A program made the position numbers and the translations under genes. The notes beneath the pieces were generated by a model that was given only the letters and a program-made list of their open reading frames with translations, did no database searches and had not been told where the DNA came from. A stretch of 61,884 bases of DNA, counting the filler, from an uncultured virus (IMG/VR IMGVR_UViG_2061766007_001639) (taxonomy: Duplodnaviria > Heunggongvirae > Uroviricota > Caudoviricetes). It is 10 parts of one record of this genome, joined end to end, with 100 filler letters (N's around TTAATTAATTAA, not from the genome) between each part and the next. Parts side by side here need not be neighbours in the genome. Positions count along the whole stretch, not along the records: positions 9,664 to 35,231 come from IMGVR_UViG_2061766007_001639; 9 more parts are not named here. The stretch is one strand, 5' to 3'. Below, piece by piece: positions 8,240 to 58,885 of the stretch (position 1 is the stretch's first letter; every line of letters begins with the position of its first letter).

Positions 8240-8894
8240 ATGAACAAATCAGTATGTTACTGCCTCACCCGCAACATCTACGAACGGGTGTTGCCGTCTA
8301 TCCATTCGTTGACGGCGAATAACAAAATTGACCAGATATACCTGCTCATTGAAGATGACGAGTTTCCGTACCCGTTGCCCGATAACGTTCAGATTATCAA
8401 CGTTATCAATCAGCCATACTTCCGTCCAGACGGCCCCAATTACGCTCAGAAATGGACGTATATGGTGCTCATGAGGGCTGCGTTGACGAAGTACCTTGTC
8501 CGGGAAGACCGTGTCCTCTCGCTCGATGTAGATACCATAATCCGTGGTGATATCTCGGCGCTATGGGGTTACGACCTTTCCGGGTACTACCTCGCAGGCG
8601 TTCCTGAACCGTACTGGACGGAACGGCTCGGACAGACCTACGTCAACATGGGTTCCGTGATGTTTAATCTGGAGAAGTTACGGAACGACGGAATGGATGA
8701 CAAGATTATCCAGGCGCTCAACACCACTCCGTTCAACCTGTGCGAACAGGACTGCATCAATCAGTTCTGCGCTGGACGGATCCTGGAGTTGCCTGGCGAT
8801 TACAACGCAACACGATGGACCACACCGACCGATAACGTCCTGATCAGGCACTACGCCGCAGAGTTCGGTTGGTTCGATACGGAGGATGTGCAGA
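8240..8894 (+). CDS. Glycosyltransferase family 8 (end in gap)
   Basis: DRVLSLDVDTII (DxD), YVNMGSVMFNL, EQDCIN, IRHYA. Confidence 0.85.
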
Positions 8895-8927
8895 NNNNNN
8901 NNNNNNNNNNNNNNNNNNNNNNNNNNN

Positions 8928-9778
8928 GAGGGTTTGAACTGGCAGGTACGTTAAACGGAATAAGACCCGTCTGGTGCTCAGAAGTGGAACCTTTCCCGAT
9001 CCGTGTCGAAGCGGCGCGTTTCCCCGACTGCAAGCAGCTCGGCGACGTGACGAAGATAAACGGCGCGGAGATCGAACCGGTGGATATTATCACGTTCGGG
9101 TCACCGTGTCAGGATCTGTCCGTCGCTGGCAAACANNNNNNNNNNNNNNNNNNNNNNNNNNNNNNNNNNNNNNNNNNNNNGGCTATACGAATTATCAAGG
9201 AGATGCGTAACCATGACGAGTTGGACGGGCGAACAGGTCTCGATATTCGACCTCGATTTGCCGTTTGGGAAAACGTGCCCGGAGCCTTCTCCAGCGGTAA
9301 AGGAAAAGACTTCCAAGCCGTCCTCCAAGCGTTCTGCAACGTTCGAGGGGGGGNNNNNNNNNNNNNNNNNNNNNNNNNNNNNNNNNNNNNNNNNNNNNNN
9401 NNNNNNNNNTGCTGGGTGCATCGTGGGAGACGGCTACAGCGTTGCCTGGCGTGTCTATGACGCTCAATACTGGGGCGTCCCCCAGCGTCGTAAGAGAATC
9501 TACCTTATCGCAGATTTTGCAACCGAACGCGCCGGAGAAATACTATTTAAGTCCGAAAGCATGNNNNNNNNNNNNNNNNNNNNNNNNNNNNNNNNNNNNN
9601 NNNNNNNTTAATTAATTAANNNNNNNNNNNNNNNNNNNNNNNNNNNNNNNNNNNNNNNNNNNNCGGCGCGAACGGCAGTGATAGCGCTGTTTATAAGATG
9701 GCCGGGAACGGCATAGCAATTCCTTGCGCCTATGACGTTCTGAACCACATCGCAGAGGAACTGCGGGGAGAACTTTAA
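8928..9778 (+). CDS. C5-cytosine DNA methyltransferase (fragmented by gaps and a linker)
   Basis: GFELAG, GDV, FGSPCQDLS (motif IV), WENVPG (VI), GVPQRRKRIY (VIII), YKMAGNG (X). Confidence 0.9.
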
Positions 9779-10652: not shown

Positions 10653-12415
10653 ATGAGCGACCCAATCCAAACAACCAAGCCATTGATACCGGAGTGGACG
10701 AAGGATGACTTTGATAACGACGTGGTATACCAATGGTTATGGGAGCATCACAACGACAACAAATACATCTTCAAAAAGTACCTTGCAAACACGCAGGACA
10801 GGGCAAAACAACTGCGCATAACGGGCTTCATGAAAATCTGGCAGGCGTATGTCGAGACGATGAACCCGCAGACTGTCACCGTTATGGGTCACAATATGAC
10901 GCAGTTCTCGGACCAACCGGTCGAGTTGGAGTGCGGTGCATATGACTGTACGTCTATGGGCGTGTACTATACGGGCCGCATGGGCGAATCGATAGAGGTC
11001 ATTAAACACCCGCTCATGCCCGTCCGACGCGTGATGAACGTTGACAGCGGAGAGGTTCAGATCGAACTAGCGTACAATCGCGGCAGGAGCAACGCCTGGA
11101 AGAGTATTATCGTTCCGAAAGATACAATTGCCTCCGCGCAGAAAATCGTCGCCCTGTCCAAGAGCGACATTGCCGTGAACAGCGAAAACGCCCGGGAACT
11201 TGTGAAGTACCTAACCGAATTGGAATCGCTGAATTACGATGAGTTGCCCGTCCAGAAGAGCACGTCGCACATGGGATGGATGGCGAACGGCGAGTTTTCT
11301 CCCTATTCCGGGGATCTGATTTACGATGGCAACACTGCTGAATTCAGCCGCATGTTCGAGCAGTTCCAGCCGACCGGTAGCCGTGACGCGTGGATGAAGG
11401 TGGCGCTCGACACCCGGAAAGGGAAGAGCGTTCCTGCCCGAATCGCATTGGCTGCATCATTCGCCGCACCGCTCATAACAAAGCTGAACGCGCTATCATT
11501 CTTCTGCCATTTCTGGGGACTGCAGGGTACAGGCAAGACGGTCGGCCTGAAGGTGGCGGCATCGGTCTGGGGCAAACCGGAACTGGGCGGCTATATCAAG
11601 AACTTCGGCGGCACCAAGAACAGCCAGGAAGTCAACGCCGCATTCTTCTGCAACCTGCCCGTCTTCATTGACGAACTGCAAGTCATCTCTGACCGGAAGT
11701 CCTTTGATGACATCATCTATATGCTCTGCGAAGGATTCTCCAAGGGCCGTAGCACGAAGGACGGCGGATTGCAGGCACAGCGGAAATGGTCTACCTGTTT
11801 CCTGACGACCGGTGAGATGCCTATCGTCCAGAGTACATCTGGAGGTGGCGCGACGGTCCGTACTATCGAGATCAATTACGGTGGTGAACCGTTTTTCGAT
11901 GACCCTCGGGAAGTGGCTGGTATTNNNNNNNNNNNNNNNNNNNNNNNNNNNNNNNNNNNNNNNNNNNNNNNNNNNNNNNNNNNNNNNNNNNNNNNTTGCA
12001 GAAACAGTACCAAGCCAGCCTTGGCAACAGAATCGAGACGAAGCAGGCCCTCTCCGCATCGATCATCCTGGCAGCTGACAAACTGGCGGATTCAGCGATA
12101 TTCCATGACGGCAGAGCATTGACACCAGACGAGATCCTGCCGTATCTGGTGACGCATGAGCAGGCGGATCTGAACCTGAGGTGCTATCAGTGGCTTATTG
12201 GATATATCGCCGCAAATCCGAAGCGATTCGAGATTGACGATAATAACGGCGAATTATGGGGTGTTAAGGGCACTGACGAAAACACCGGCAAGCGCATGGT
12301 GTACTTCATCAGAACATGCTTCGACAAAGTCCTCGGTGATGGCGGTTTCTCCCCTGGAGCATTCCTGACGTGGGCAAAGCAAAAAGGGCTGCTTGTAACC
12401 AGACGCAGTGATGCC
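10653..12415 (+). CDS. DUF927-family replicative helicase/ATPase (gap-split, end in gap)
   Basis: Walker A GLQGTGKT, Walker B VFIDE, LTTGEMP; GGAGG RBS. Confidence 0.85.
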
Positions 12416-12894: not shown

Positions 12895-13140
12895 TCATTG
12901 CTACAGTTGCTACACCTTTTACAGTGCAAAACATAAGCTATATAGAGAATAAAAAAATAGCGCAACTGGACGTTCATTCAAATTTGCGCAAAAAATATTC
13001 CTCACGCGTAAGGATGTTTTTTTACTGTAGTAACTGTAGTAACTGTAGCAATGGCCTTAAAAAGTCAATAAAATCAAGCGATTTGAGGCTCGATTTACTA
13101 CTACAGTAGCTACTACACCAGAACAAATACTGTAGCAACG
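12895..13140. repeat. Putative replication origin with iteron-like repeats
   Basis: AT-rich non-coding stretch after the helicase; ACTGTAGTA tandem (13024-13050) and inverted CTACAGT copies. Confidence 0.6.
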
Positions 13141-13193
13141 GAAGTATCATGAACATCATCGCGAACGAAAAATATAACTGGAGGCGATCCATC

Positions 13194-13943
13194 ATGAACG
13201 CTATTCTACTGAGCATCAACCCACGTTGGTGCGATCTGATCCTTTCCGGGCAGAAGAACGTCGAGGTGCGGAAGCGTATACCGCAGCGTTTCGGAGCGCC
13301 GTTCCGAGTTTACCTTTACCGGACAAGGAAGTCTGGCAGCGCTGAATGGGACGGAATGATCGTAGGCGAATTCATCTGCGATAAGGTGTACGGACTGGAG
13401 CGTGACGAATACGTCTATATTGACCTGAACGGTTGGAAATACGATAAATGGATCTGGGTGGACGGATCCGAACGATTCGATCAGCTAGACCGTCGTGATT
13501 TGCGGACTTGCCTTTCCGGGAATGAGATGACCAAGTACGCCAAGAACAGTGACAAACTGTACGGACTGCACGTATCGGAGGTGAAACGCTATGAGACGCC
13601 CGTGACGATTGAAGAACTGACGAGATGCAGGCACCTGGATAGGGAAAGGGTGTGCGGGAGGTTCATGCAACCAGTTACCGTACCGAGAACCGGGAGCATT
13701 TCCTTGACCAGATTCAACTGCCCGTATCAGCACGTTGACTACTTCAACCCCAACTACCGACCGAACGAGTGCGAGTGCCGCCGGAAAGTCAATACCAATG
13801 CGCCGCAGTCGTGGCAGTACGTGGATGATGATGACGCACAGGCGGCAGTTGAGCGGATGAACCCGATCCGAGTGGAGNNNNNNNNNNNNNNNNNNNNNNN
13901 NNNNNNNNNNNNNNNNNNNNNNNCCGCCCTTTCCGGGACGTAG
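13194..13943 (+). CDS. ASCH/PUA-domain protein
   Basis: LLSINPRWCDLILSGQKNVEVRK and APQSWQY motifs. Confidence 0.8.
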   Translation: MNAILLSINPRWCDLILSGQKNVEVRKRIPQRFGAPFRVYLYRTRKSGSAEWDGMIVGEFICDKVYGLERDEYVYIDLNGWKYDKWIWVDGSERFDQLDRRDLRTCLSGNEMTKYAKNSDKLYGLHVSEVKRYETPVTIEELTRCRHLDRERVCGRFMQPVTVPRTGSISLTRFNCPYQHVDYFNPNYRPNECECRRKVNTNAPQSWQYVDDDDAQAAVERMNPIRVEXXXXXXXXXXXXXXXXALSGT

Positions 13944-14116
13944 TGGGCGGGAACAATCAGAACGACAGGTGACTAGTGCTTCTTTCCCTTTCCGGGTTGG
14001 TGACAGCAGAACAGAACTGAACGACTAGTGACTAATCTTTTTTACCTTTTCCGAGGCGTAGTTGGTACAACAGAACCANNNNNNNNNNNNNNNNNNNNNN
14101 NNNNNNNNNATCCGGG

Positions 14117-14434
14117 ATGGAGGTGCAAGTAATGCCGGTAATGATCCGCGACGTTGATCTCCCATCGACCTGCCAGCAGTGTCCGTGCTTTGGCGTTTCG
14201 TATCTGAGAGATGACGCCAATCACATGTTCGATATCGTGGTGCAGCAGTGCCGGGCACACAGGCAGATAATCAGAATGGCGTATAGCGTGACAGATACAG
14301 ACGAATCGTGGCACAAAACAAAGCGGCCCGAGTGGTGCCCGATGGTATGNNNNNNNNNNNNNNNNGAATGGCAACGAATGCAGCGTATAGTATCTGCTCA
14401 ATCAGAACAGAACAGTAGCGAATGTAATATCTAG
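14117..14434 (+). CDS. Hypothetical Cys-rich phage protein
   Basis: DLPSTCQQCP...RPEWCPM pattern. Confidence 0.5.
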   Translation: MEVQVMPVMIRDVDLPSTCQQCPCFGVSYLRDDANHMFDIVVQQCRAHRQIIRMAYSVTDTDESWHKTKRPEWCPMVXXXXXXEWQRMQRIVSAQSEQNSSECNI

Positions 14435-14492
14435 TGGCGATTTTAGTCAGAACAGGTCAAAACAGTTGAATGAAAGGGTGAAATGTGGTATA

Positions 14493-15139
14493 ATGACCAT
14501 AGATAAAAAAACGTTGATTGCAATGCCGGCCATGTCGATGATGCACACCGCATCAGCAGAGTGCTTCGTCAATATGCGCAAAGGTAATGGCGTTTCGTTC
14601 GGGATCACTCAGAACAGTCTGGTATATGACGCCCGGAACGATTTCGCCTGGAACGCAATCAATCAGGGCTTTGAACGGGTGCTCTGGATTGACAGTGACA
14701 TGACATACGAACGTGACATTCTTGAACGTTTGTATGCTGACATGGACGACGGTGACAAACAGTACGTTTCCGCTCTTGCCTTTACCAGGAAACTGCCAAC
14801 CGCGCCGGTCGTGTACTCAGATCTGACCTNNNNNNNNNNNNNNNNNNNNNNNNNNNNNNNNNNNNNNNNNNNNNNNNNNNNNNNNNNGGTGCCGTCATGA
14901 CCAGCGTTAATCTGCTCAAACAGGTGTGGGATAAATACGGCCCGCCGTTTGACCCTCTACCACATATGGGCGAGGATATCTCGTTCTGCTGGCGCGTTAA
15001 ACAACTGGGCGTACCGATGTGGTGCGACAGCAGAGTTAAGGTCGGGCATATCGGGCAGGTGGAGTTTAATGAGGCGACTTACCTGAACCAACAGAAGCAA
15101 CTCGCAACGACACCAGAAGAGAATCAGAGCGTAACGTAG
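14493..15139 (+). CDS. GT-A fold (GT2-like) glycosyltransferase (gap-split)
   Basis: SLVYDARN, LWIDSD (DxD), GEDISFC, VGHIG. Confidence 0.8.
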
Positions 15140-15539
15140 CAGAACGTCTCTGAACTGCCGCAACATATCAGACCGTCATCAGACCGCCTAGAACGTGCCT
15201 AGAACGCGTTTCAACCGTGAATGCGATAAGAGATACCAATCGCGCCAGAACCGCTCAGAATGCCGTTTAAATGCGTTTGGTGACGTTCAACGCAATTAAC
15301 GGGAATCCAGACCGCTAGAATCCGTTTTTAGCGTGGGTACGTATAAAGTATCGCCTAGACCGCTACAAACGATTCTAGCCCTCTCAACCCGCACAAGAAG
15401 TCTATGTCGGGAACAAACCAGAGTGATGCATCCAGACGTGACGTCTGCAATCAGAACAAACCGGAGCAACACGTCCGGAACGTAACGTCTCAAACCAGAA
15501 CGTTCCCGCTCTGATCGATGTGAAATGGAGCTGACAATA

Positions 15540-16091
15540 ATGCCAAGATCGAAAAAGCAATCCGCAGAATTGACCGTCCAGTCACCAGAAGAACAGGTCG
15601 TATCCGCGGTAAAGGAAAAACGCCATCGCAATCGTCCCGATCTCGCTAAGTTCGGTTACGAAAATGCTGAACCGGGAGATAACGCCCGTTACCTCAGGAT
15701 GGCTAGAGTCTCNNNNNNNNNNNNNNNNNNNNNNNNNNNNNNNNNNNAGTACTTTGATTTCTGCGAACATAACGACAGAAAGCCTAACATGGTTGGTATG
15801 GCTAACTGGATTGGTATCGATAGAGATACGCTCACATTGTGGAAGAAAGGCGACTACCGAAGCGGAACACACTTCGGAATGATAAAAAAGTATATCGACT
15901 TACTGGAAGAAATGTGGATAGATTACATGCAGAACGGTAAAGTCAATCCTGCAAGTGGGATCTTCCTCGGGAAAAATCTGTTTTCGTACAAAGATACACA
16001 AGACGTTATCCTCACACCTAACAACCCACTAGATAACATGTCCGACGATGAAAGCAGAAAACGTCTAACAGAAGCAATACCAGAAGAATAG
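15540..16091 (+). CDS. terS: Terminase small subunit (DNA-packaging gp3-like)
   Basis: YFDFC...GMANWIGIDRDTL HTH and GIFLGKNLFSYKD C-terminal motif; lies upstream of terL. Confidence 0.7.
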   Translation: MPRSKKQSAELTVQSPEEQVVSAVKEKRHRNRPDLAKFGYENAEPGDNARYLRMARVXXXXXXXXXXXXXYFDFCEHNDRKPNMVGMANWIGIDRDTLTLWKKGDYRSGTHFGMIKKYIDLLEEMWIDYMQNGKVNPASGIFLGKNLFSYKDTQDVILTPNNPLDNMSDDESRKRLTEAIPEE

Positions 16092-16098
16092 CAAACAA

Positions 16099-16129
16099 GC
16101 GCGCCTGCGAATATGTAGGTGCGCTTTTA
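16099..16129 (+). terminator. Rho-independent terminator after terS
   Basis: GCGCGCCTGC-loop-GTAGGTGCGC followed by TTTT. Confidence 0.6.
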
Positions 16130-16587
16130 CTGTACCAGTGTAGATTATATACTATGCATATCTAATCTAATCTAATCAGATCAGAACGAATAGAATATAT
16201 TAGTACAGTTACTACAGTAAATAATAATAATATATTTCGTGACGCGTCAGGTTGCTTTTGAGTGTTAGAGACTGTGCTGTACACATTGGCTAGGCACCAG
16301 AGCGGACTGCCTTTACCAGGGGCGCGGAGAAGGGCGGCGCTGGGACTAGCTGTATGGATCGGGGCAGGACGTGACGGAACGGGGTAGCGGGTCACCCCTC
16401 GGAAAAGGTAATACAGGGCTGGCCAGATCTGATCCGCTCTGTTTTTCTGCTAACGGCGCTCCGTTTCCCAACGGGCGCACCAGAACGGCCCTGGTGGCAC
16501 CAGAACGGGCAGATGATAGCAGAACGACGAGAATACGGTCGGCAGAACAGACGATTCTAGGGGCGTTTACGGGCGTTTCGGAACGGG

Positions 16588-16619
16588 CAAAAGAAAACCG
16601 CCCCAGAAAGGGCGGTATC
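16588..16619 (-). terminator. Rho-independent terminator closing the minus-strand operon
   Basis: Minus strand ACCGCCC-TTTCTG-GGGCGGT then TTTCTTTT. Confidence 0.8.
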
Positions 16620-16631
16620 GTTGGTTAATCA

Positions 16632-16892
16632 TCAGGCGTCGATGTGGTACGCGCCGTCATCGTTGCGCGTGAAATAGGTAGTCCCATCTGTGGAGGTCAG
16701 CAGACTTTCGATATCGCTGGCATCGTTGATCATATCCAGCGTCCAGCCGTTGCCATAGATTGTGTCGCCGTCTGAAAATTCGTCGGTAGTATCATGCAAC
16801 AGAACGCCGTCTTGAACGGTGGTTTCGTCGGCGTAGGTGAAGCGGATGGCGGTGATCTCAATGTCGCGACCGTTGTAGTTAATGGTTTTCAT
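16632..16892 (-). CDS. Acidic hypothetical protein
   Basis: GAGGAGGG RBS; 86 aa, Asp/Thr-rich. Confidence 0.7.
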   Translation of the reverse strand: MKTINYNGRDIEITAIRFTYADETTVQDGVLLHDTTDEFSDGDTIYGNGWTLDMINDASDIESLLTSTDGTTYFTRNDDGAYHIDA

Positions 16893-16923
16893 TGTGTTTC
16901 CCTCCTCTTTCTGTGTCGTTTGT

Positions 16924-16952
16924 AGTATAGCATTTTGTGCGGATCAGGTCAA
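16924..16952 (-). promoter_or_regulatory. Sigma-A promoter with extended -10
   Basis: Minus strand TTGACC-17 nt-TATACT with TG two bases upstream of -10. Confidence 0.7.
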
Positions 16953-17219
16953 GCAGAACCTGCTGCTCTTGCTGGTTACGGTGTATTTCGCTGCCACATC
17001 AGGGAGGGCGGCTTTCAGGGCTTTGGTGTCGATGCGGCTGGACTCGATCACCTTCCACGATGCTTTCCAGCCGGTGCCGGTCAAGGTCTCTTCGCCCCTA
17101 GTCGCCATCTCCATTTTCAGTTCGTCCTTGATTGCTTCGGCCTCTGCTGTCATGCTCTCAATCTCGATCTGCAGCGCCTTCAGAATGCTTACCTTCTGGT
17201 CTAAATCCTTGATGCTCAT
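16944..17219 (-). CDS. Hypothetical phage coiled-coil protein
   Basis: GAGGAGG RBS; SSRIDTKALK...SSRF pattern. Confidence 0.7.
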   Translation of the reverse strand: MSIKDLDQKVSILKALQIEIESMTAEAEAIKDELKMEMATRGEETLTGTGWKASWKVIESSRIDTKALKAALPDVAAKYTVTSKSSRFCLT

Positions 17220-17270
17220 GGTGTAACCTCCTCTTTATCGTTGAATCAGAACGGGTTAATCAGAACGGTG

Positions 17271-17663
17271 TCAAGCGTACCAGGAAACATAGCAGCGTTT
17301 GGAGTCGCCCTTGCAGAGTGTCGCGTCGGCGTAACTACTGAGCTTGAACGCGGGGCATCCGTTGTTCTTCAGGCGCTTGACGTCACCGTGTTCTTGATCC
17401 CGAACAAACAGACTGTAATCTGCAGCGGGTAGGATGTCATGGGGCAGGGCGTAGGTGTAATTTGCGGCCATGGGTCCGGTTGCCTCTTCCTTGATGATGG
17501 GGGGCAGGATCTCGCGGACTCTGACGGACGACTCGCCCACCAGGGCGACCACCTGGAAGAAGTCAACGTTGGTCTGGTCATATCCCCAGGATGAGCAGAA
17601 GATATCGCCAACGCGGACGCCGTACTTGTTAATGCGGGTGATGTTTGTTTCGTTGTTCTTCAT
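17271..17663 (-). CDS. Conserved hypothetical protein of mobile elements
   Basis: GGGAGG RBS; VGDIFCSSWGYDQTNVDFFQV motif. Confidence 0.75.
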   Translation of the reverse strand: MKNNETNITRINKYGVRVGDIFCSSWGYDQTNVDFFQVVALVGESSVRVREILPPIIKEEATGPMAANYTYALPHDILPAADYSLFVRDQEHGDVKRLKNNGCPAFKLSSYADATLCKGDSKRCYVSWYA

Positions 17664-17695
17664 GGTTTGTAACCTCCCTTTGCTTTGTCGTTTTG

Positions 17696-17758
17696 CGGCT
17701 TCCTACGACGCCCTGTCGGGCGTTTCGGCCCGGTGCCGCCGGGCCATCATCAGGTAGG
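17696..17758 (-). ncRNA. Type I hammerhead ribozyme
   Basis: Minus strand CCUAC-CUGAUGA-U-GGCCCGG(CGGCA)CCGGGCC-GAAA-CGCCC(GACA)GGGCG-UC/GUAGG-AA-GCCG; three perfect stems and intact core. Confidence 0.9.
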
Positions 17759-17762
17759 GTTA

Positions 17763-17918
17763 TCAGAGCATCGCCGCCAGGATCGGCAGCAGAACCAACA
17801 GCAGAACCAGGGCGATCCCTGCTGCGATCTCCGGTAGCAGAACGCGGATCGTCAGCAGAACGTGCCGCAGATCGCTCATCAGAACAGCAGAACGTGAGGC
17901 TTTATAGTTGCGTACCAT
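17763..17918 (-). CDS. Small single-TM protein (51 aa; not in ORF track)
   Basis: GGAGG RBS; MVRNYKASR...IAAGIALVLLLVLLPILAAML. Confidence 0.5.
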   Translation of the reverse strand: MVRNYKASRSAVLMSDLRHVLLTIRVLLPEIAAGIALVLLLVLLPILAAML

Positions 17919-17932
17919 CAGAAGCACCTCCA

Positions 17933-18664
17933 TTATGCGACGCGTTGCCAGTATTGGATAATCGTCCTGTATTGATCATCAGAGTACCGGGGCAACTTCC
18001 ACAGGTCCATGTGCCCGCCGCGCATGTAGTAGGCATACGCCACACCAGCTTCGCGGGGTTCCGGGAACAACTCACATCCGGCCTGGTTTATAATGTTCCT
18101 GCTGTGCTGTGCTGTCGCCGTCCGCAAGCCCACAATGCCGGTAAAGTTGACTTTAATCTCTGTCGGGATCACTGTCGCCAATGGGCATTGGGTACCGGCG
18201 ATAACGTGCACATTCAACGCGCGGCCGATTTGGCATATCCTTTGCAGGATGGGCTTTGCCGTCTTTTTCATGGTTAGCATGATTTCGGCCATTTCATCAA
18301 TGAAGATGTAGATGTGTCCGCCGTCATACTGTGCTAGCTCTCGGCGTTGCAAATCACGCTTCCGCCTGTCGATGATCGCTAGGGCCATGTTCAGCGCGTC
18401 CGTGATTTCGTCGTTTTCGCACGCATATTTCAGCGTGTGGGGCAGGCGCTTATACTTTCCAAACTCGGTGAATTTTGGATCGATGAAGATAAACTGGACT
18501 TTATCCGGGCACTCATGAAGCAGATTGTAGATTATCGAATTCATGGCGCAGGATTTGCCGGAGCCAACTTCACCGGCGATTAGTAGATTGTGCTGGCGGG
18601 CCATGTCGGCGTATAGGCTGTACACCTGGCCACGCGGGGCTGTTACTTTACGTCTAAAAAGCAT
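17933..18664 (-). CDS. Stand-alone FtsK/SpoIIIE-family ATPase domain
   Basis: LLIAGEVGSGKS, FIDPK, IFIDE, GRALNVHVIAGTQ. Confidence 0.85.
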   Translation of the reverse strand: MLFRRKVTAPRGQVYSLYADMARQHNLLIAGEVGSGKSCAMNSIIYNLLHECPDKVQFIFIDPKFTEFGKYKRLPHTLKYACENDEITDALNMALAIIDRRKRDLQRRELAQYDGGHIYIFIDEMAEIMLTMKKTAKPILQRICQIGRALNVHVIAGTQCPLATVIPTEIKVNFTGIVGLRTATAQHSRNIINQAGCELFPEPREAGVAYAYYMRGGHMDLWKLPRYSDDQYRTIIQYWQRVA

Positions 18665-18680
18665 TTGATATCACCCCCAA

Positions 18681-18827
18681 TTAATGCGTGCAAGGCGCGA
18701 CGCTGGAAACAATCATGACTCCGTCATCGTCTTCAATCCATCCATTGACGCGTGCGGCAATTTTCAGCGCCGCTATAAAGCTGGCATGCATTGCCCAAAA
18801 ACCATTGGCGTTGCGGATCGTAAACAT
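18681..18827 (-). CDS. Small hypothetical protein (48 aa; not in ORF track)
   Basis: GGAGG RBS; MFTIRNANGFWAMH... Confidence 0.5.
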   Translation of the reverse strand: MFTIRNANGFWAMHASFIAALKIAARVNGWIEDDDGVMIVSSVAPCTH

Positions 18828-18871
18828 GTTAAAACCTCCGATTTTTTGTCGTCTCTGTCGCTGTCGGCTTG

Positions 18872-19069
18872 TTACGCGTTTATTATGTCGTGATACGTGC
18901 CGATCATTTCTATTTTAATCCCTGCGTCCCTGGCCGCGTCCCTGGCTGCGTCAATTGTGGGATAGCGTCGGCCGTCGTATGGCGTTGTGCCCCATGGAAC
19001 AAGTTTCACAATGCCGCAGAACGTCTTTTTTCCGTCGCCGGTTACCATGATCGCATAGCGTTTTTCCAT
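18872..19069 (-). CDS. Small hypothetical protein
   Basis: AGGAGG RBS; 65 aa. Confidence 0.65.
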   Translation of the reverse strand: MEKRYAIMVTGDGKKTFCGIVKLVPWGTTPYDGRRYPTIDAARDAARDAGIKIEMIGTYHDIINA

Positions 19070-19097
19070 TGCTATTTCCTCCTGTTTCGTTGTTGTT

Positions 19098-19161
19098 GGC
19101 TTGCCTTCATCAGATAACAGGTTGCCGTCCTGCTATGACGGGCCTTGCGGCCCGTTTCGGC
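19098..19161 (-). ncRNA. Type II hammerhead ribozyme
   Basis: Minus strand GCC-GAAA-CGGGCC(GCAA)GGCCCG-UC/AUAGCAGG(ACGGCAA)CCUGUUAU-CUGAUGA-A-GGC-AA-GCC. Confidence 0.88.
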
Positions 19162-19163
19162 TT

Positions 19164-19904
19164 TTAATCGTCCTGTGCTTCAATGAGTGCCTTTAATTCT
19201 TCAAATCGGGCGTCCTGTTCTGCCTTGTATGCTGTGCTGTGTTCAATGAAGAGAACAAATTGTGCTGTCGCGCAATGTTTGCAATTTTCGCAATGCTGAT
19301 TTTTGTCAATGCCACAACGACAAATCCAAACTTTTGCGTCCATTGCCTTGAGTTTGTTATACGCGTTGATGATATAATCGCAATGACCAAAATTATATCC
19401 AATGCCGTCAATAATGGATTTGACAATGTTTCCGTTGGCTGTATCATCGAATAGCGTTTCATACTTCGCTATTTTTGTGTACGTCCAGAAAAGGAATGAC
19501 GGATTTTCTACAACGACTCTATGCCATGTATTGGCGTATTCTTCTGGATTATTCACATTGAAATCGCCGGAAGCATGTATTCTTATTTCCCCGCTTCCGA
19601 TTATTTCAAGCTGTGCGGAAATTGCATTGTAGAAAAATTCGATATCATCATTTACGATTGACATATTCAATTCAAGGGATCGTTTGACACTTGCCATGTT
19701 ATAAAAACCTGTCTGTGCATAGCAGCCCTTGCAATCGCAAATGCATGTTCCCTTTGTTCCGGCCGGCATGCTCCATGTATAAACGCGCTTGCCTGTTTTG
19801 CTATTGCCTTCCTTGAGTAATTCGGCAATCCAATTGCCATGATAAAGGATTTTCCCTGCCTTGTATTCAATGCCATGGAGCTTGTAAACTTCCTTCGCTG
19901 TCAT
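19164..19904 (-). CDS. GP88-family (radical-SAM-like, Cys-rich) protein
   Basis: GNSK, TCxxxCxxCYA, IRIHASGDF, FWTYTK and C-terminal CxxCxxC. Confidence 0.75.
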   Translation of the reverse strand: MTAKEVYKLHGIEYKAGKILYHGNWIAELLKEGNSKTGKRVYTWSMPAGTKGTCICDCKGCYAQTGFYNMASVKRSLELNMSIVNDDIEFFYNAISAQLEIIGSGEIRIHASGDFNVNNPEEYANTWHRVVVENPSFLFWTYTKIAKYETLFDDTANGNIVKSIIDGIGYNFGHCDYIINAYNKLKAMDAKVWICRCGIDKNQHCENCKHCATAQFVLFIEHSTAYKAEQDARFEELKALIEAQDD

Positions 19905-19960
19905 TGCGTCCGCCTTCCTTCCTTTTGTCGTCTGTTTTGTTCCTTCCTTATTACGTGAAT

Positions 19961-19989
19961 AGTATATCATGATTGCGCGTAAATGTCAA
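19961..19989 (-). promoter_or_regulatory. Strong sigma-A promoter of the minus-strand operon
   Basis: Minus strand TTGACA-17 nt-TATACT with extended -10 TG. Confidence 0.85.
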
Positions 19990-20060
19990 TAGCAAATTCA
20001 AGATTGCACGTAATTTTCTTTGATCATTCCTGACTTTTAATCGCTTCGCTGTCGTTTTTC

Positions 20061-20158
20061 CTGCTGGCCTTGCTTCCGGGCGTGACGATGCTTCCGGGCG
20101 CGTGCTGGCCTGCTGGCCTTGCTTCCGGGCGTGACGATGCTTCCGGGCGCGTGCTGGC
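20061..20158. repeat. Perfect 49-bp tandem duplication
   Basis: CTGCTGGCCTTGCTTCCGGGCGTGACGATGCTTCCGGGCGCGTGCTGGC x2. Confidence 0.9.
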
Positions 20159-20361
20159 AAGGCCTGCCCGGATCGGATCGGCAGGAAAAACGCGTCCCCC
20201 GCGGGGAAATAGGCGAAGACGGGGAGGGGGTGATGGAGTCCCGCTACCACCCGCCAAAAATAAAAAGCAAATTTTCTTNNNNNNNNNNNNNNNNNNNNNN
20301 NNNNNNNNNNNNNNNNNNNNCGTAATGGTGGTAATATGTATCACGAAGGGAGGGATTGACG

Positions 20362-21122
20362 ATGAACGTTGCGGCCTACATCAGGGTGTCCACGGACGGG
20401 CAGTGCGGAGACGATAAGTTCGGATTGGACGTTCAGAAGCAGATAATCAACGAGTATTGTGCGAAGAACGGCATGACGATTCTGCGCTGGTACATGGACG
20501 AGGGCGAGTCTGGTGCGAAGGAGCGGCCCGGATTTGACGAGATAGTATACGGAGAGGTAAGCAATCCTCCGACCGAGGCTGTTATCGTTGCGAAGTCTGA
20601 CCGTGTGGCAAGGGACATCAACATCTATTACTACTATAAGATGATGTTGAAGAAGAAGGACATCAAGCTGATTTCGATTGCGGAGGACTTTGGGCAGTTT
20701 GGTGTATTTGCGAACATGCTTGAAGCGTTTACGATGTGTGTCGCGGAAATGGAAAGAGACAACATTACAAAACGCACCAGCAGCGGTCGCAAGGTGAAGG
20801 CATCGCGTGGTGGGTACAGTGGCGGCGNNNNNNNNNNNNNNNNNNNNNNNNCGGTGGTGCGCTTGTAATCAACGAAGACGAGGCAAAGGTCGTTCGGAAG
20901 ATATTTGAACTCCGCAACTCGGGCAGTACGATGCCGGGCATTGTGGAATATCTGAACTCGAACGGATATGCGACTCGTCGTGGTGGAAAGTTTCAGATTA
21001 GTACAATTCAGGGGATTCTGAACAACAGGAAAACATATGAGGGTTATTATCACTACGGAAGCAATGGTGAATGGGTTAAAGGGCAACACGAACCGATCCT
21101 TACCGACGAAGACGAACAGTAA
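20362..21122 (+). CDS. Serine recombinase (resolvase plus recombinase domain; gap-split)
   Basis: AAYIRVSTDGQ, DEGESGA..RPG, KSDRVARD; C-terminal EAKVVRKIF...GQHEPIL. Confidence 0.9.
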
Positions 21123-24079: not shown

Positions 24080-24094
24080 TTGGGAGGCGATTAT

Positions 24095-24714
24095 ATGGCT
24101 AAAAACAATGAAACATACAACAAAAGTGAATGGATTGGAAAGAAATTTGGCAGGCTTACAGTTATTGAACCGGTTCATAGAGTGCATCCAAATGGGAAAA
24201 GCCAATGGTATTGGAAGGTTGTTTGTGAATGCGGAACGATAAAGGAAGAGCACCCGCATACACTTATAACCGGAAAGGTGGTATCGTGCGGATGTTATAG
24301 GTTACATGACAAACCCTGCCACACAAAGACTCATGGCGAAAGTCATACGCGTTTACACGATATTTGGTGCGGGATTAACAGACGGTGCAACCCGAAAAGC
24401 ACGATTTCAGAACGATATGGAAAACGAGGAATAACTATATGCGAAGAATGGAACGACTATGAAAAGTTCGCAGAATGGGCAAGAAACAACGGATATGATG
24501 ATGGACTAACGATTGAAAGAATAGATGTTAACGGGAACTATTGCCCTGAAAATTGTACGTGGATTCCGCTTAGAAAACAGGCGCGGAACAGGCGTACAAC
24601 ACATTGGGTAAATTATGATGGACGTAGAATGTCTCTTGCGGAGGCGTGCGAACTTGCGAATCTGCCCTATAAGCAAGTATTTGGACGTATAACAAAACGT
24701 CACTGGTCTGTTGA
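24095..24714 (+). CDS. HNH-type homing endonuclease
   Basis: GKKFGRLTVI, CECG, SCGC, YGKRGITICEEW, TIERIDVNGNYCPENC. Confidence 0.85.
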
Positions 24715-24868
24715 ANNNNNNNNNNNNNNNNNNNNNNNNNNNNNNNNNNNNNNNNNNNNNCGGTTATTGTAGAACCGGAAGAAATAGTCAAACGCAGGCT
24801 GGATGATGCAGATAACAATTACGCGTGTTATATCTGATGCCTTCTTTCCGTTAATTACCTAATAACTA

Positions 24869-24897: not shown

Positions 24898-25066
24898 ACA
24901 GTCAAAGAAAGTGTACACCACACAAATTCTTATATGCAAAACACAGTCAAACACTGAATGAACAGACGTGATAGGTCTGTCATTCCTGCTTTTTACAGAG
25001 CAGTCAGAGTCAATCCGAGCGGATGATTTCTGGCTGCTCTTTTTTGTATTTTTCGGAGGTGGTACT

Positions 25067-26755
25067 GTGGCTCTTGAGGCAGATACCGTGCGGAAGTTGA
25101 GCGACATTGAGCCGCAGTCGCTACACGGGAGAAGGCAGATTTTCACATCTGAGACGAAAATCACGCGCGAGAACGTCATTGATGTTCTGGAGAAGGCACT
25201 CCCGGTACACGCGAGGAATCGTCAAGAGATCATATATCTGGAGAAGTACATTCGAGGCATTCAGCCGATCCTGGAAAGGGTAAAGAATGTCAACGCCGAG
25301 ATTAACAACAAGGTCGTTGTGAACATCGCGAACGAGATCGTGGCGTTCAAGACGGCTGAGTTTGCCGGCGAACCGATCCAGTACATCAGCCGTGCCAGCG
25401 ACAATGAGTCTGTCCCGGAAAAGGTCGCGAAGCTGAACGACATGATGATTTCCGAGGGCAAGCAGACGAAAGACTTCGAGCTGGCTCATGACATGTTCAC
25501 CGATGGCGTCGGGTATCGGCTGGTTATTNNNNNNNNNNNNNNNNNNNNNNNNNATGAAGCGCCGTTCGAGATTTACATTCCGGAACCGCGCAATACGTTC
25601 GTGGTGCGGGTGAACGACGTCACCAAGCGCGTCGTGATGGGCGTGACGTATGTGTATCTGGACCCGCCCGTTGACGGCGTTCGGAACGCTCCGTATATTC
25701 CCGAACCGACCGGCGGCATCCGGTACACGGTTTACACCGACGACGCGACGTATACCATCGACAGCATTGACAGTAACGGCCTGGAGATCAAGAACGAGGT
25801 TCACCATAACTTCGGTGCTGTTACGCTGGTTGAGTATCCGTGCAATTCGCTCTATATGGGCGCTTTCGAGGTTGTACTGCCTCTGCTCGATGCGATCAAC
25901 ACCACACAGAGCAACCGCCTGGACGGGATTGAGCAATTCATTCAGGCGATCATGGTGTTTGAGGGCGTAGACATCACGCGCGAACAGTTCCTCGAATTGA
26001 AGGACCTTGGCGCGTTGAAACTGCCGCCGTCTGTGGATGGACGGTCCAGCCGTGTTTACTACCTCAACGAGCAGTTGGATCAGGCGCAAACGCAAACGCT
26101 AGTAGACGATATGTACCAGACGGTCTTGCAGATTGTCGGTATGCCGTCTCAGGGCAATGCCAACACGTCTGACAGCAGCAACAATGGCGCGACAATCATG
26201 AAAAATGGTTGGTGGCACGCCGAGGCACGGGCGCTTGAAGCCCAGTCAATGTGGCGGCGCTCTGAGACGGATGTTCTGAAAATCGTGCTGAAGATCGCAT
26301 CCGAAAGCGGCGAACTGACCGGTCTGAAGATTTCGGATATTGAACCGAAATTCTGGCGGCAGAGTTACGAAGATCTGCTGGTCAAGACTCAGTCGTTCAG
26401 CACGCTCCGGTCGGCTGGTATGCCGGCGATCCAGGCGTTCACGTTCAGCCACCTGAGCAAGGATCCCGAAAGCGACGCGATGGTGTACGACGATTACCAG
26501 GAAGAGCAGGCACAGCAACTGGACGCCCTGTCCGGTGCGGGTGGAACAGATAGCGATATTGACGTTTCTGCCGGTGCCAGTGCCGCTCCGATGGGTGTCG
26601 GTTCGACGAGTGGCGAGACGACCGGAACAGGTCATCCCAAGGACAGCATTGGCGTGTGCCCGGTATGCAAGCGTTCGTTCAGGAAACGCAGCAACAACCA
26701 GGTGTATGACCGTCCGGAATGCAGACGCAAGGCCCATGGCGGTGATGTCGAGTGA
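25067..26755 (+). CDS. Portal protein (SPP1 gp6-like)
   Basis: Position after terL; NNKVVVNIANEIV, GAFEVVLPLLDAIN; GGAGG RBS with GTG start. Confidence 0.85.
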   Translation: MALEADTVRKLSDIEPQSLHGRRQIFTSETKITRENVIDVLEKALPVHARNRQEIIYLEKYIRGIQPILERVKNVNAEINNKVVVNIANEIVAFKTAEFAGEPIQYISRASDNESVPEKVAKLNDMMISEGKQTKDFELAHDMFTDGVGYRLVIXXXXXXXXXEAPFEIYIPEPRNTFVVRVNDVTKRVVMGVTYVYLDPPVDGVRNAPYIPEPTGGIRYTVYTDDATYTIDSIDSNGLEIKNEVHHNFGAVTLVEYPCNSLYMGAFEVVLPLLDAINTTQSNRLDGIEQFIQAIMVFEGVDITREQFLELKDLGALKLPPSVDGRSSRVYYLNEQLDQAQTQTLVDDMYQTVLQIVGMPSQGNANTSDSSNNGATIMKNGWWHAEARALEAQSMWRRSETDVLKIVLKIASESGELTGLKISDIEPKFWRQSYEDLLVKTQSFSTLRSAGMPAIQAFTFSHLSKDPESDAMVYDDYQEEQAQQLDALSGAGGTDSDIDVSAGASAAPMGVGSTSGETTGTGHPKDSIGVCPVCKRSFRKRSNNQVYDRPECRRKAHGGDVE

Positions 26756-58271: not shown

Positions 58272-58744
58272 ATGCTTGAATTAAGACCAATCGATCTGAA
58301 CGGTGCCCGTCAGTTTGTCGGCGAGAATCACCGACACAACAAGCCACCGAACGGGCATAAATTCTCCATCGCTTGCTACGACGGCGACAGACTCTGCGGC
58401 GTGGCGATGGTTGGACGGCCCGTTGCAAGGCTACTGGATGACGGCCTGACGGTTGAGGTAACACGCAACTGCACCGATGGCACGTACAACGCCTGTTCGA
58501 TGCTGTACGGCGCGTGTTGCAGGGCCGCTAAGGCACTCGGATACAAGAAGATCATCACGTACACCCTCGAAAGCGAACCCGGGACGTCGCTGAAGGCAAG
58601 CGGATGGACACTGGTCCAAAAACATGTAGGGGGGGCGGATGGGACAGGCCGAACCGGAAGCGGGAACTGGTACAGTATACGCTGCTTGGTGATGAAATCA
58701 AGTATTCGACCGAGAAGAAAGTGCGGTGGGAAAAGATGTTATGA
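58272..58744 (+). CDS. XF1762-family (Mom-like GNAT) protein, frameshifted at a G7 tract
   Basis: HRHNKP, GRPVARLLDDG, NACSMLYGA, ITYTLESEPGTSLKASGW. Confidence 0.7.
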
Positions 58745-58885
58745 AGCGCGATTTATCTGGAAGAAAATATACGGTTTATAAACACACGACCCCTGACGGA
58801 AAGTCATATATCGGAATGACGTCACAGCCGCTCGAAGTAAGATATGGGTCTGGCGGATACAGATGGAAATACTTTGATGGCGGTG
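58741..58885 (+). CDS. GIY-YIG endonuclease (fragment)
   Basis: YTVYKHTTPDGKSYIGMT. Confidence 0.75.

Follow-up and report, generated by a model that had tools for sequence, protein, structure and literature searches.

The locus belongs to an uncultured tailed phage and was studied within a window of 61,884 nucleotides, filler included, which is the whole stretch of DNA analysed. It comprises a small terminase gene (terS), a gene for an FtsK-like ATPase and, running from upstream of the former to just before the stop codon of the latter, many copies of the word CAGAAC (Table 1). Each unit of the upstream direct repeat had the form CTTTCCGGG ... CAGAAC, with copies at 13958, 14007, 14012 and 14071. 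The terS leader also held about ten degenerate YAGAMC variants, counted by eye, while terS itself contained a single copy, in frame as CAG-AAC (15930), and terS homologs in the relatives passed the PF16677 cutoff (38–55 bits). The promoter-like element after terS included a TACTACAGTA-type word, found too at 13018–13113. Plus-oriented copies lay within or between the three small minus-strand ORFs (16800, 16954, 17247, and 17261), and the possible 56-aa ORF was, by eye, not kept as an ORF in the relative L050. The phage also encodes exonuclease VIII-like, SSB/ERCC4 and RusA-like genes. A small serine recombinase gene at 20356 in the window was found nearby in the window's own lineage only, and the ORFs scanned in L311 and L272, two compact relatives, gave no resolvase match.

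Table 1. Elements of the array and neighbouring features, with positions along the window.
Feature	Position	Strand	Basis or remark
Polar word array, 28 CAGAAC plus / 1 minus	13958..17893	+	k-mer counts
Intergenic, partly N-masked set of three ~55–60-bp direct repeat units	13924..14078	+	family D7
Three CAGAAC copies at or beyond the end of a 105-aa ORF; two overlap as CAGAACAGAAC	14403..14453	+	
Non-coding terS leader, 385 bp, 4 exact CAGAAC copies	15140..15524	+	
terS, P22 gp3-type small terminase	15525..16091	+	PF16677, 26.9 bits (below the cutoff of 29.4; part of sequence masked)
AT-rich promoter-like element ending ...ATATTTCGTGACGCGTCAGGTTGCTTTT	16140..16262	+	kept after terS in L050, L049, L030 (I1, I18)
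Four CAGAAC copies, spacing 19–23 bp, in a GC-rich non-coding stretch	16481..16548	+	
Strong terminator-like hairpin closing the gap ahead of the minus-strand genes	16597..16616	.	
Three small ORFs (86, 91, 130 aa)	16632..17663	-	
Possible 56-aa hydrophobic ORF; Val-Leu codons spell six copies (17790–17893)	17763..17933	-	
FtsK-like ATPase, 243 aa, Walker A GSGKS, Walker B IDE	17933..18664	-	PF01580

A count on both strands recovered 28 plus-strand copies of CAGAAC and one minus-strand copy (14983) between 13940 and 17900, compared with 1.8 expected from its frequency elsewhere in the window. The original prediction had proposed about 28 plus-strand copies, and all 26 of the positions it listed were present, together with 14610 and 15930. 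Beyond this region the window held 22 plus and 20 minus copies. Over the whole window, 71 copies on both strands contrasted with 24.7 ± 4.6 (maximum 34) in 100 dinucleotide-preserving shuffles of it, and CAGAAC ranked first in hexamer enrichment within 13940–17900. The longer word CAGAACG occurred there 14 times on the plus and once on the minus strand, the core CAGAA 42 times versus 5 across the array, and the consensus was A-N-CAGAA-C-[G/A]. Some copies may be hidden, as 15% of the window is N-masked. The polar array is thus real; it extends over 3.9 kb, ends 40 bp short of the FtsK-like stop codon and is one-sided, word density falling to background to the right of the FtsK-like cassette both in the window and in a meta-profile of 36 loci.

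The orientation of the word did not follow that of the genes, as had been claimed. Up to the end of terS, where genes are on the plus strand, there were 13 plus copies and 1 minus copy; the 540-bp gap at 16092–16631 had 5 and 0, and the minus-strand gene stretch at 16632–17933 had 10 and 0, six of these ten being GTT-CTG (Val-Leu) codon pairs of the possible 56-aa ORF. A different behaviour was found in the single related chromosome analysed, the 232-kb Oscillospiraceae MAG G006, which is not known as a host of the phage. CAGAA-type words there numbered 635/284 in co-oriented genes, 75/173 in counter-oriented genes and 55/39 in intergenic DNA, i.e., they flipped with gene strand and were not replication-oriented, and a prophage in this MAG did not have the array. 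Since the array is kept in relatives and is blind to gene orientation, whereas the same words flip with gene strand in this chromosome, the proposal of a strand-polar signal at the DNA level is supported.

The neighbouring ATPase matched PF01580 at 3.5e-24, and its GSGKS and IDE motifs were invariant across 11 homologs. An AF2 model with a pLDDT of 89.9 had as its best PDB matches the FtsK motor domains 2IUS, 2IUT and 6T8B (TM 0.77–0.82 of the query), and some of the motor structures matched are bound to dsDNA. The alignments covered the whole query, yet only about half of the alpha+beta targets, with the model ending at the beta domain. The protein is therefore confidently predicted to be a stand-alone FtsK beta (RecA-type) motor domain, without the alpha domain, linker, membrane part or gamma reader. 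No FtsK_gamma or other reading domain was detected in it or among the 174 ORFs from the window and nine relatives scanned with Pfam, and no transmembrane segment was apparent by eye in its 243 residues. No other ORF of the cassette was conserved with the pump (the best occurred in 12 of 75 loci), so that no candidate reader protein emerged.

The array is shared by related siphophages of the rumen and gut, where it is again kilobase-scale, one-sided and built on the core word A-N-CAGAA-C/A. In four relatives with 53–71% portal identity, CAGAA occurred at the same place 30 to 51 times on the plus and 1 to 9 times on the minus strand per array, with about symmetric counts in the flanks. A word-agnostic test, in which one 6-mer had to occur at least 10 times on one strand and at most twice on the other within 2.5 kb beyond the FtsK-like stop, detected an array in 59 of 82 non-redundant pump-bearing loci and in none of 33 control regions, although array and pump are syntenic almost everywhere and their co-occurrence is therefore not independent evidence; by the same test, the array was absent from 23 loci with the FtsK-like gene. 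All 59 array words lay on the strand opposite to the FtsK-like coding strand. They were of the CAGAA type in 50 loci, GCAGAAG/CAGAAG being the most frequent word of the module, and a few clades used other purine-rich words (CGGAGCGG, GGAACGG, and ACGAAGG). In the meta-profile (36 loci), plus-strand density was 4–7 per kb over about 5 kb, rose to 24 and 38 per kb in the spacers on either side of terS, and dropped to 0.7 per kb past the FtsK-like stop. The array does not everywhere have its right-hand end at the pump stop, since in GGA[GA]CGG clades, and partly in class B (see below), the words continue through the cassette. The same word occurred alongside two different replicative helicase families and thus does not track the helicase. 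Word spacing had no helical phasing, copies overlapped at 5–6 bp, and 11–13-nt words such as GGAAAGCAGAAC were conserved in some phages. The array of L028 includes a 17-bp tandem repeat of six units.

The position of the array relative to terS differed between two classes of loci. In the window and class-A relatives, the densest clusters were in the spacers directly before and after terS, and the relatives had their densest cluster in the terS leader (24 per kb over the 250 bp before terS, 36 loci). In 14 class-B loci, representing only about three sub-lineages, terS sits with terL, 2–3 kb beyond the FtsK-like cassette, and the ORF in the place of terS was not TerS-like. The 2.5 kb to the left of the FtsK-like stop in these loci held CAGAA at +260/-33, against +4/-14 within 400 bp either side of terS, 2.8 kb from the array; in 11 of them, the final copy lay 36–37 bp from the FtsK-like stop. 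Where terS and the FtsK-like gene separate, the array stays with the FtsK-like cassette.

The reading tentatively preferred here is that the CAGAAC copies may be guide words, similar to KOPS, SRS or clt, for the minimal FtsK-type pump of the phage. The array is this phage's version of a conserved polar word array and would be part of a module around a FtsK-type dsDNA pump. The words would act as oriented loading or guide sites, as KOPS/SRS do for FtsK/SpoIIIE or clt for TraB, so that the pump, alone or within a complex, is placed on phage DNA in a single direction. If the KOPS convention applies, it would travel rightward, in the direction of its own cassette and of the terL/portal packaging genes, and might clear, resolve or deliver concatemeric DNA ahead of packaging. 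Of the three candidates put forward in the original prediction (a TerS/pac array, a nucleoprotein spreading site and KOPS-like cues for the FtsK-type ATPase), the last has the best comparative support, though not as a strict KOPS/FtsK mechanism, because the ATPase has no gamma (KOPS-reading) domain. If this reading holds, a pump without a known reading domain would imply that sequence is read in a new way or through a new partnership, and TerS, a new motor surface or a fast-evolving small cassette protein could be the reader. The wider proposal is more doubtful, namely that a widespread group of siphophages of gut and rumen Clostridia possesses a second, dedicated motor system beside the terminase, consisting of a gamma-less pump and a kilobase-scale, one-sided guide-word field that evolves between clades (CAGAA, GGAGCGG, GGAACGG, and ACGAAGG), with a novel kind of reader and with the pump loaded directionally on replicated DNA and driven toward the packaging start.

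Comparison with known systems revealed both likenesses and differences. Guide words include GGGNAGGG for E. coli FtsK-KOPS, GAGAAGGG for B. subtilis SpoIIIE-SRS and GAGAAG for L. lactis KOPS (PMC8190038). As in these systems, a FtsK-type dsDNA motor occurs here with short, purine-rich words in one orientation; GCAGAAG, CAGAAC, ACGAAGG, GGAGCGG, and GGAACGG share these traits with GAGAAG and GAGAAGGG, and GCAGAAG/CAGAAG is one base apart from the L. lactis word in that account (PMC8190038). The phage motor differs from FtsK and SpoIIIE in being a beta domain only. Its words are packed into 4–5 kb on one side of the gene, whereas KOPS are spread over two arms converging on dif, and the phage has no Xer/dif partner. 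TraB-type pumps of Streptomyces conjugative plasmids, which recognise direct 8-bp repeats in clt, likewise combine a mobile element, an FtsK-like pump and a cluster of short direct repeats (PMC4447253), and the phage array similarly abuts the 3' end of its pump (40 bp in the window, 36–37 bp in the 11 class-B loci). However, TraB is membrane-associated and reads clt by its own C-terminal domain; the phage pump has no such domain, and in the window just a separate 56-aa hydrophobic ORF adjoins it. The setting also differs, since the phage elements lie between the replication and packaging modules of a tailed phage. The length of clt is tens to hundreds of base pairs, not kilobases.

An unlikely, though live, alternative, absent from the original prediction, is a Chi-like cluster protecting DNA ends, in which the words would be the recombination hotspot of the host AddAB/RecBCD, set in active orientation to the left of the packaging cut, and a nuclease entering the exposed end and moving leftward would be quickly switched to recombination mode. 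Different words between clades could then reflect different hosts, and the variant CGGAGCGG contains AGCGG, the Chi of B. subtilis. Copies that overlap and show no helical phasing suit a translocating reader. Published precedent is close: the lambdoid LLS has 23 Chi, 20 of them on the terminase-sense strand and clustered at the genome end by cos, and Pseudomonas phage MD8 has 32 to 0 (PMC12315714). These lambdoids, of the 'no Rec module' type, share with the present array 20–32 copies of one polar terminase-sense word just upstream of the packaging genes (PMC12315714), and the copy number here (28–50), one-sidedness, strand and place all match. However, the array continues for at least 1.8 kb to the right of terS in the window and relatives, which would place the cut at a distance from terS. 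The conserved 11–13-nt words exceed known Chi sites in length, and CAGAA-type words behave as plain coding words in MAG G006. In LLS and MD8, by contrast, RecBCD reads a word known as the Chi of the host, and Chi-rich lambdoids mostly do not have recombination genes of their own (PMC12315714), whereas this phage does.

It is somewhat less likely still that the array is instead bound by a TerS ring, marking the packaging start and setting its direction. Direct repeats suit a cyclic ring, and the clusters adjoining terS in the window and class A favour this reading; the displacement of the kilobase-scale array from terS in class B speaks against it. FtsK-less relatives with the same TerS family had 11–13 direct GGCGACT[AT] repeats within 190 bp from the terS stop (three loci of one lineage), a block that looks like a classical compact pac site. 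Repeated words beside terS are also a feature of the direct-repeat pac sites of SPP1 (pacL/pacR) and P1 (hexamers). The present array is not compact: it covers 3.9 kb of the window, extends over about 5 kb in the meta-profile and includes coding sequence of unrelated genes; to our knowledge, no pac site approaches 4–5 kb. A TerS-FtsK_gamma fusion in Sam46/Sam112, for which KOPS-like sites were proposed, provides an evolutionary link of TerS with the DNA-reading parts of FtsK (PMC8190038), but no gamma domain was detected by Pfam in TerS of the window or relatives. Word choice did not follow TerS relatedness either, since L179, with 30% TerS identity, shared CAGAAC, whereas the closer L030 (52%) used CGGAGCG, and the unphased, overlapping copies also argue against this reading.

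Another reader or level of action appears improbable, whether a zone-coating nucleoid, partition or regulatory protein, or an RNA motif on long plus-strand antisense transcripts. Many copies adjoin ribosome-binding sites and stop codons and the putative promoter-like element after terS points rightward, but no conserved candidate protein was found, and an RNA role requires antisense transcription through the minus-strand genes. Mimicry of host KOPS/SRS, with the words recruiting host FtsK/SpoIIIE and the gamma-less motor perhaps modulating or poisoning the host pump, would account for the phage protein needing no reader. The one-base difference from the Firmicute word GAGAAG in the source cited above (PMC8190038) is consistent with it, as is the frequency of GCAGAAG, 2.5–2.8 times that of its reversed control in two of four Clostridia genomes; since the excess in MAG G006 is codon-driven and flips with gene strand, such mimicry is nonetheless highly improbable. 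A functionless by-product of local duplication or slippage and composition is hardly credible, for although tandem repeats make up parts of some arrays (13924–14078 in the window; the sixfold repeat of L028), copies are scattered across kilobases, through numerous distinct spacers and genes, at a polarity of about 28:1 and are conserved across proteins diverged to 39–50% identity, with none of the control regions positive.

Few DNA signals set the direction in which molecular machines travel, and KOPS, SRS, Chi and clt belong to them; such polar guide words are known in chromosomes, in plasmids and, as Chi, in one class of lambdoid phages. In the full-text literature searched, the array appears undescribed. 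If the pump system does read guide words, a large group of uncultured gut and rumen phages would encode a minimal FtsK-type pump of its own along with a dense guide-word field, with consequences for the processing of phage concatemers ahead of packaging; under the wider proposal above, no KOPS-like guidance system would have been described in a virus before. If instead the words are Chi-like, candidate Chi sequences could be drawn from the arrays for Clostridia that have been little studied. Under either reading, they provide a simple sequence marker of this phage module.

Matches to PHROGs and Pfam identified the window, about 15% of which is N-masked, as a temperate siphophage genome in circularly permuted layout, with the array region downstream of the replication genes. 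A blastn search of 14900–19200 against INPHARED phages returned no match.

Features of the window, with the compact repeat blocks of three relatives in the last rows
Feature	Position	Strand	Basis or remark
Tyrosine integrase and repressor	~49–52 kb		PHROGs/Pfam
Early/recombination genes following these (exonuclease VIII-like, SSB/ERCC4, Mom-like, RusA-like)			PHROGs/Pfam
Replication genes, next in order (primase, GT8/C5-methylase fusion)			PHROGs/Pfam
DUF927-type primase-helicase (replication genes)	10653–12122		PHROGs/Pfam
Weak ASCH-like ORF	13149–13943	+	Pfam match under cutoff
105-aa ORF	14117–14434	+	
ORF pair	14466–15139	+	No significant Pfam match
terS	15525–16091	+	
Gap	16092–16631		540 bp
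86-aa ORF	16632–16892	−	
91-aa ORF	16944–17219	−	
130-aa ORF	17271–17663	−	
Possible hydrophobic 56-aa ORF	17763–17933	−	
FtsK-like ATPase	17933–18664	−	
More small ORFs beyond FtsK-like gene	to ~20250	−	
Small serine recombinase	20356–		After array region
terL fragments			After array region
HNH endonuclease gene	24080–24772		Between terL fragment and portal (window lineage)
Portal	24968–26755		
Head and lysis genes			After array region
GGCGACT[AT] block, L338	6584–6772		Class C relative
GGCGACT[AT] block, L339	7137–7325		Class C relative
GGCGACT[AT] block, L340	8497–8685		Class C relative

Throughout the phage group a 2–4-kb minus-strand cassette splits terS from terL (16632–20868 in the window), and in the window's lineage a small serine recombinase (~190–200 aa) directly precedes the terL region. 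An exact 49-bp tandem duplication (20060–20157) in the divergent region between cassette and recombinase gene may serve as a site for a recombinase or for regulation. An invertible segment was considered, given this recombinase beside an opposite-strand cassette, and rejected, as there were no notable flanking inverted repeats and no inversion joints in contigs from four runs; these contigs showed no physical genome ends either. The fused glycosyltransferase-8/C5 cytosine methylase ORF (8240–9457) and the Mom-like protein (58272–58781) point to modification of the phage DNA. Words of the TACTACAGTA type (13018–13042, 13099–13113 and 16200–16224, including an inverted pair of 25 nt with 92% complementarity) flag two AT-rich promoter-like regions, 5′ of the 13149 gene and 3′ of terS; by eye, relative G003 has TGTACA words at both equivalent places, and these words are probably a common operator through which a middle or late regulon is controlled. 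In another relative (L051) a glycosyltransferase-2-like ORF lies 5′ of terS.

The original prediction was that CAGAAC is tiled along one strand around terS, with about 28 plus-strand copies in about 4 kb, and counts on both strands agreed with it. Between 13940 and 17900 there were 28 copies on the plus strand and one on the minus, against 22 and 20 outside, and the 71 copies of the whole window exceeded the 24.7 ± 4.6 of shuffled sequences. About one copy had been expected; the rest-of-window frequency predicts 1.8 in this region. Orientation proved as blind to gene strand as had been claimed, with plus/minus counts of 13/1 in plus-strand genes, 5/0 in the gap and 10/0 among minus-strand genes. 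CAGAAC was the top enriched hexamer of the region, within a wider consensus A-N-CAGAA-C-[G/A] (CAGAA by itself, 42 plus and 5 minus), and overlapping copies occur (CAGAACAGAAC). Read off the sequence and ORF calls, about 18 copies lie in non-coding DNA, two form in-frame CAG-AAC codons in plus-strand genes, a GTT-CTG codon pair in the 86-aa ORF accounts for one more, and six are Val-Leu codons within the doubtful 56-aa ORF. Spacings inspected by eye gave no evident helical phasing, and the right end lies 40 bp short of the FtsK-like stop codon.

A portal scan of IMG/VR yielded 46 relatives, and a polar array was present at the same place in all four records examined in full, with CAGAAC at 22 plus and 1 minus in 3.6 kb (G004) and CAGAA at +40/−7 (G001), +40/−4 (G002) and +30/−1 (G003, with a tight run of GGAAAGCAGAAC right before terS); the flanks were approximately symmetric in strand counts in all four. 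Gene order was kept, running from the helicase through a few genes, terS, the minus-strand FtsK-like cassette and the small serine recombinase to terL and portal, and terS of three relatives matched GP3_package at 38–55 bits. The same anatomy was found in L030 with a different word, CGGAGCG[G/A] (27 to 1), and in L034 and L036 the word was GGAGCGG or GGAACGG, partly within low-complexity C-terminal tails of minus-strand ORFs. Among the best 80 of 337 FtsK-like relatives, 68 were non-identical, and in 56 of these a GP3-type terS was convergent with the FtsK-like gene at a distance of 183–2269 bp. A profile of 36 CAGAA-array loci had a plus-strand density of 4–7 per kb over ~5 kb upstream of terS. 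This density peaked on either side of terS, at 24 per kb over the preceding 250 bp and at 38 per kb over the following 125 bp, and beginning at the FtsK-like stop it was down to 0.7 per kb; the minus strand upstream of terS held 0.3–2 per kb, mostly ≤~1.

Independently of the word, a hexamer present at least 10 times on one strand and at most twice on the other within 2.5 kb beyond the FtsK-like stop was found in 59 of 82 non-redundant loci and in 0 of 33 controls, and 50 of the 59 arrays had a CAGAA-type word. Scanning IMG/VR for three close CAGAACG copies gave at least 121 stretches; in the eight marker-less loci inspected, the copies were coding repeats that kept to the strand of their gene and were spaced by multiples of 3, and these are therefore not comparable arrays. 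Among the matches listed, orientation-independent arrays occurred only in lineage members, including the distant L179 and L159. A single-protein scan of IMG/VR with the FtsK-like protein confirmed no relatives.

Other repeats were noted in this zone, which is rich in repeats of several kinds. The 10-bp unit GGCTGCCTCC is repeated in tandem about 50 times (L034, 3600–4115; also L033, 1–311) and the 17-bp unit TTGCTATTCAGAAGSGG six times (L028, 4684–4790), in both cases beside the FtsK-like cassette. Between cassette genes of the window, Rfam matched a type II hammerhead ribozyme at 19095–19162 (−), at 35 bits versus a gathering threshold of 37 (E 2.9e-4); a focused scan of 16450–17850 found no further hammerheads, even at E ≤ 10, and with this single near-threshold match the hammerhead was rejected as the source of CTGATGA-like copies. 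A related short repeat lies at 16563, 17710 and 19132/19142, and many foreign contigs from the same metagenome stack on 17706–17754 and 19094–19139, to a depth of up to ~200.

The Walker A and B motifs of the 243-aa FtsK-like protein were invariant among homologs, and its predicted fold was confident (pLDDT 89.9). It matched FtsK motor domains over the whole query length but only about half of the targets, so that the phage pump is an FtsK beta domain alone. Pfam scans of the pump and of 174 neighboring ORFs from the window and nine relatives found no gamma domain, and no other ORF of the cassette was conserved with the pump. Against species-representative genomes, the matches listed were only cellular FtsK (28–36% identity), with no host. 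Our tentative reading, held at somewhat less than even confidence, is that the array words act as guide words for this pump, in the manner of KOPS, SRS and clt.

Alternatively, the words (ALTERNATIVES) may be read by the host and give Chi-like protection of DNA ends. One report describes phages with 20–32 polar Chi sites clustered beside the packaging end (PMC12315714), the same geometry as in the window. MAG labels of TerS relatives were mostly Oscillospirales/Clostridia, on short contigs. In 232 kb of an Oscillospiraceae MAG (G006) that contains a distant prophage relative, CAGAA-type words flip with gene strand and are therefore plain coding words there, whereas those of the phage array do not flip; the flipping counts weakly against Chi or KOPS mimicry. 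We regard Chi-like protection as unlikely. In the same DNA, GGTGAA, TGGTGA and GGTGAAA stay leading-strand biased even outside co-oriented genes (GGTGAA 155/39 overall, 29/16 in counter-oriented and intergenic DNA), and may serve that organism as Chi- or KOPS-like words.

The original prediction had named three candidates: TerS/pac recognition, a nucleoprotein spreading site and polar cues for the neighboring FtsK-type ATPase. TerS-anchored scans (best 80 of 97 relatives) gave three arrangements, of which class A is that of the window and has terS and the FtsK-like gene in convergent orientation. Class B comprises 14 loci of about three sub-lineages, in which terS, terL and an SPP1-type portal form one uninterrupted block 2–3 kb downstream of the FtsK-like cassette (Pfam on L416); CAGAA counts there were +260/−33 over the 2.5 kb to the left of the FtsK-like stop, +102/−38 in the cassette, +4/−14 at terS ± 400 bp and +36/−47 beyond, and the ORF at the terS position was not TerS-like. 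Class C (three loci, one lineage) has the same TerS family without an FtsK-like gene, and carries 11–13 direct GGCGACT[AT] repeats in a tight 190-bp block from the terS stop codon, each block facing a minus-strand cassette of genes without assigned function; in these loci the word was not spread outside the block. Kilobase-scale spread therefore accompanies the FtsK-like cassette, whereas a compact block after terS may be a true TerS site; the GGCGACT[AT] repeats are a good compact pac-site candidate. The array itself as a TerS/pac signal is quite unlikely. By its placement, the array is associated with the phage FtsK-type pump rather than with terS, which favors the ATPase candidate over TerS/pac recognition. 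Helicase iterons or a SaPI-like origin were removed because the same word is common to two unrelated helicase families (DUF927/Cch-type and D5_N/Pox_D5-type).

In the FtsK-like tree (18 rows), CAGAA was ancestral and paraphyletic and the other words formed one or two derived clades, while branching in the TerS tree (14 rows) was not resolved; the trees therefore do not single out the reader protein. Another reader, or action at the RNA level, is distinctly improbable. Mimicry of host FtsK/SpoIIIE words, against which the flipping in the MAG counts weakly, has a very small chance of being correct, and an array without function is hardly credible.

Full-text literature searches found no description of a module of polar array and phage FtsK-type pump; the nearest published cases found are the Sam46/Sam112 TerS-gamma fusion (PMC8190038) and the Chi clusters of the lambdoid phage LLS (PMC12315714). 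The array is real, a conserved feature of these phages rather than a local accident, and, judged from sequence comparison, selected at the DNA level.
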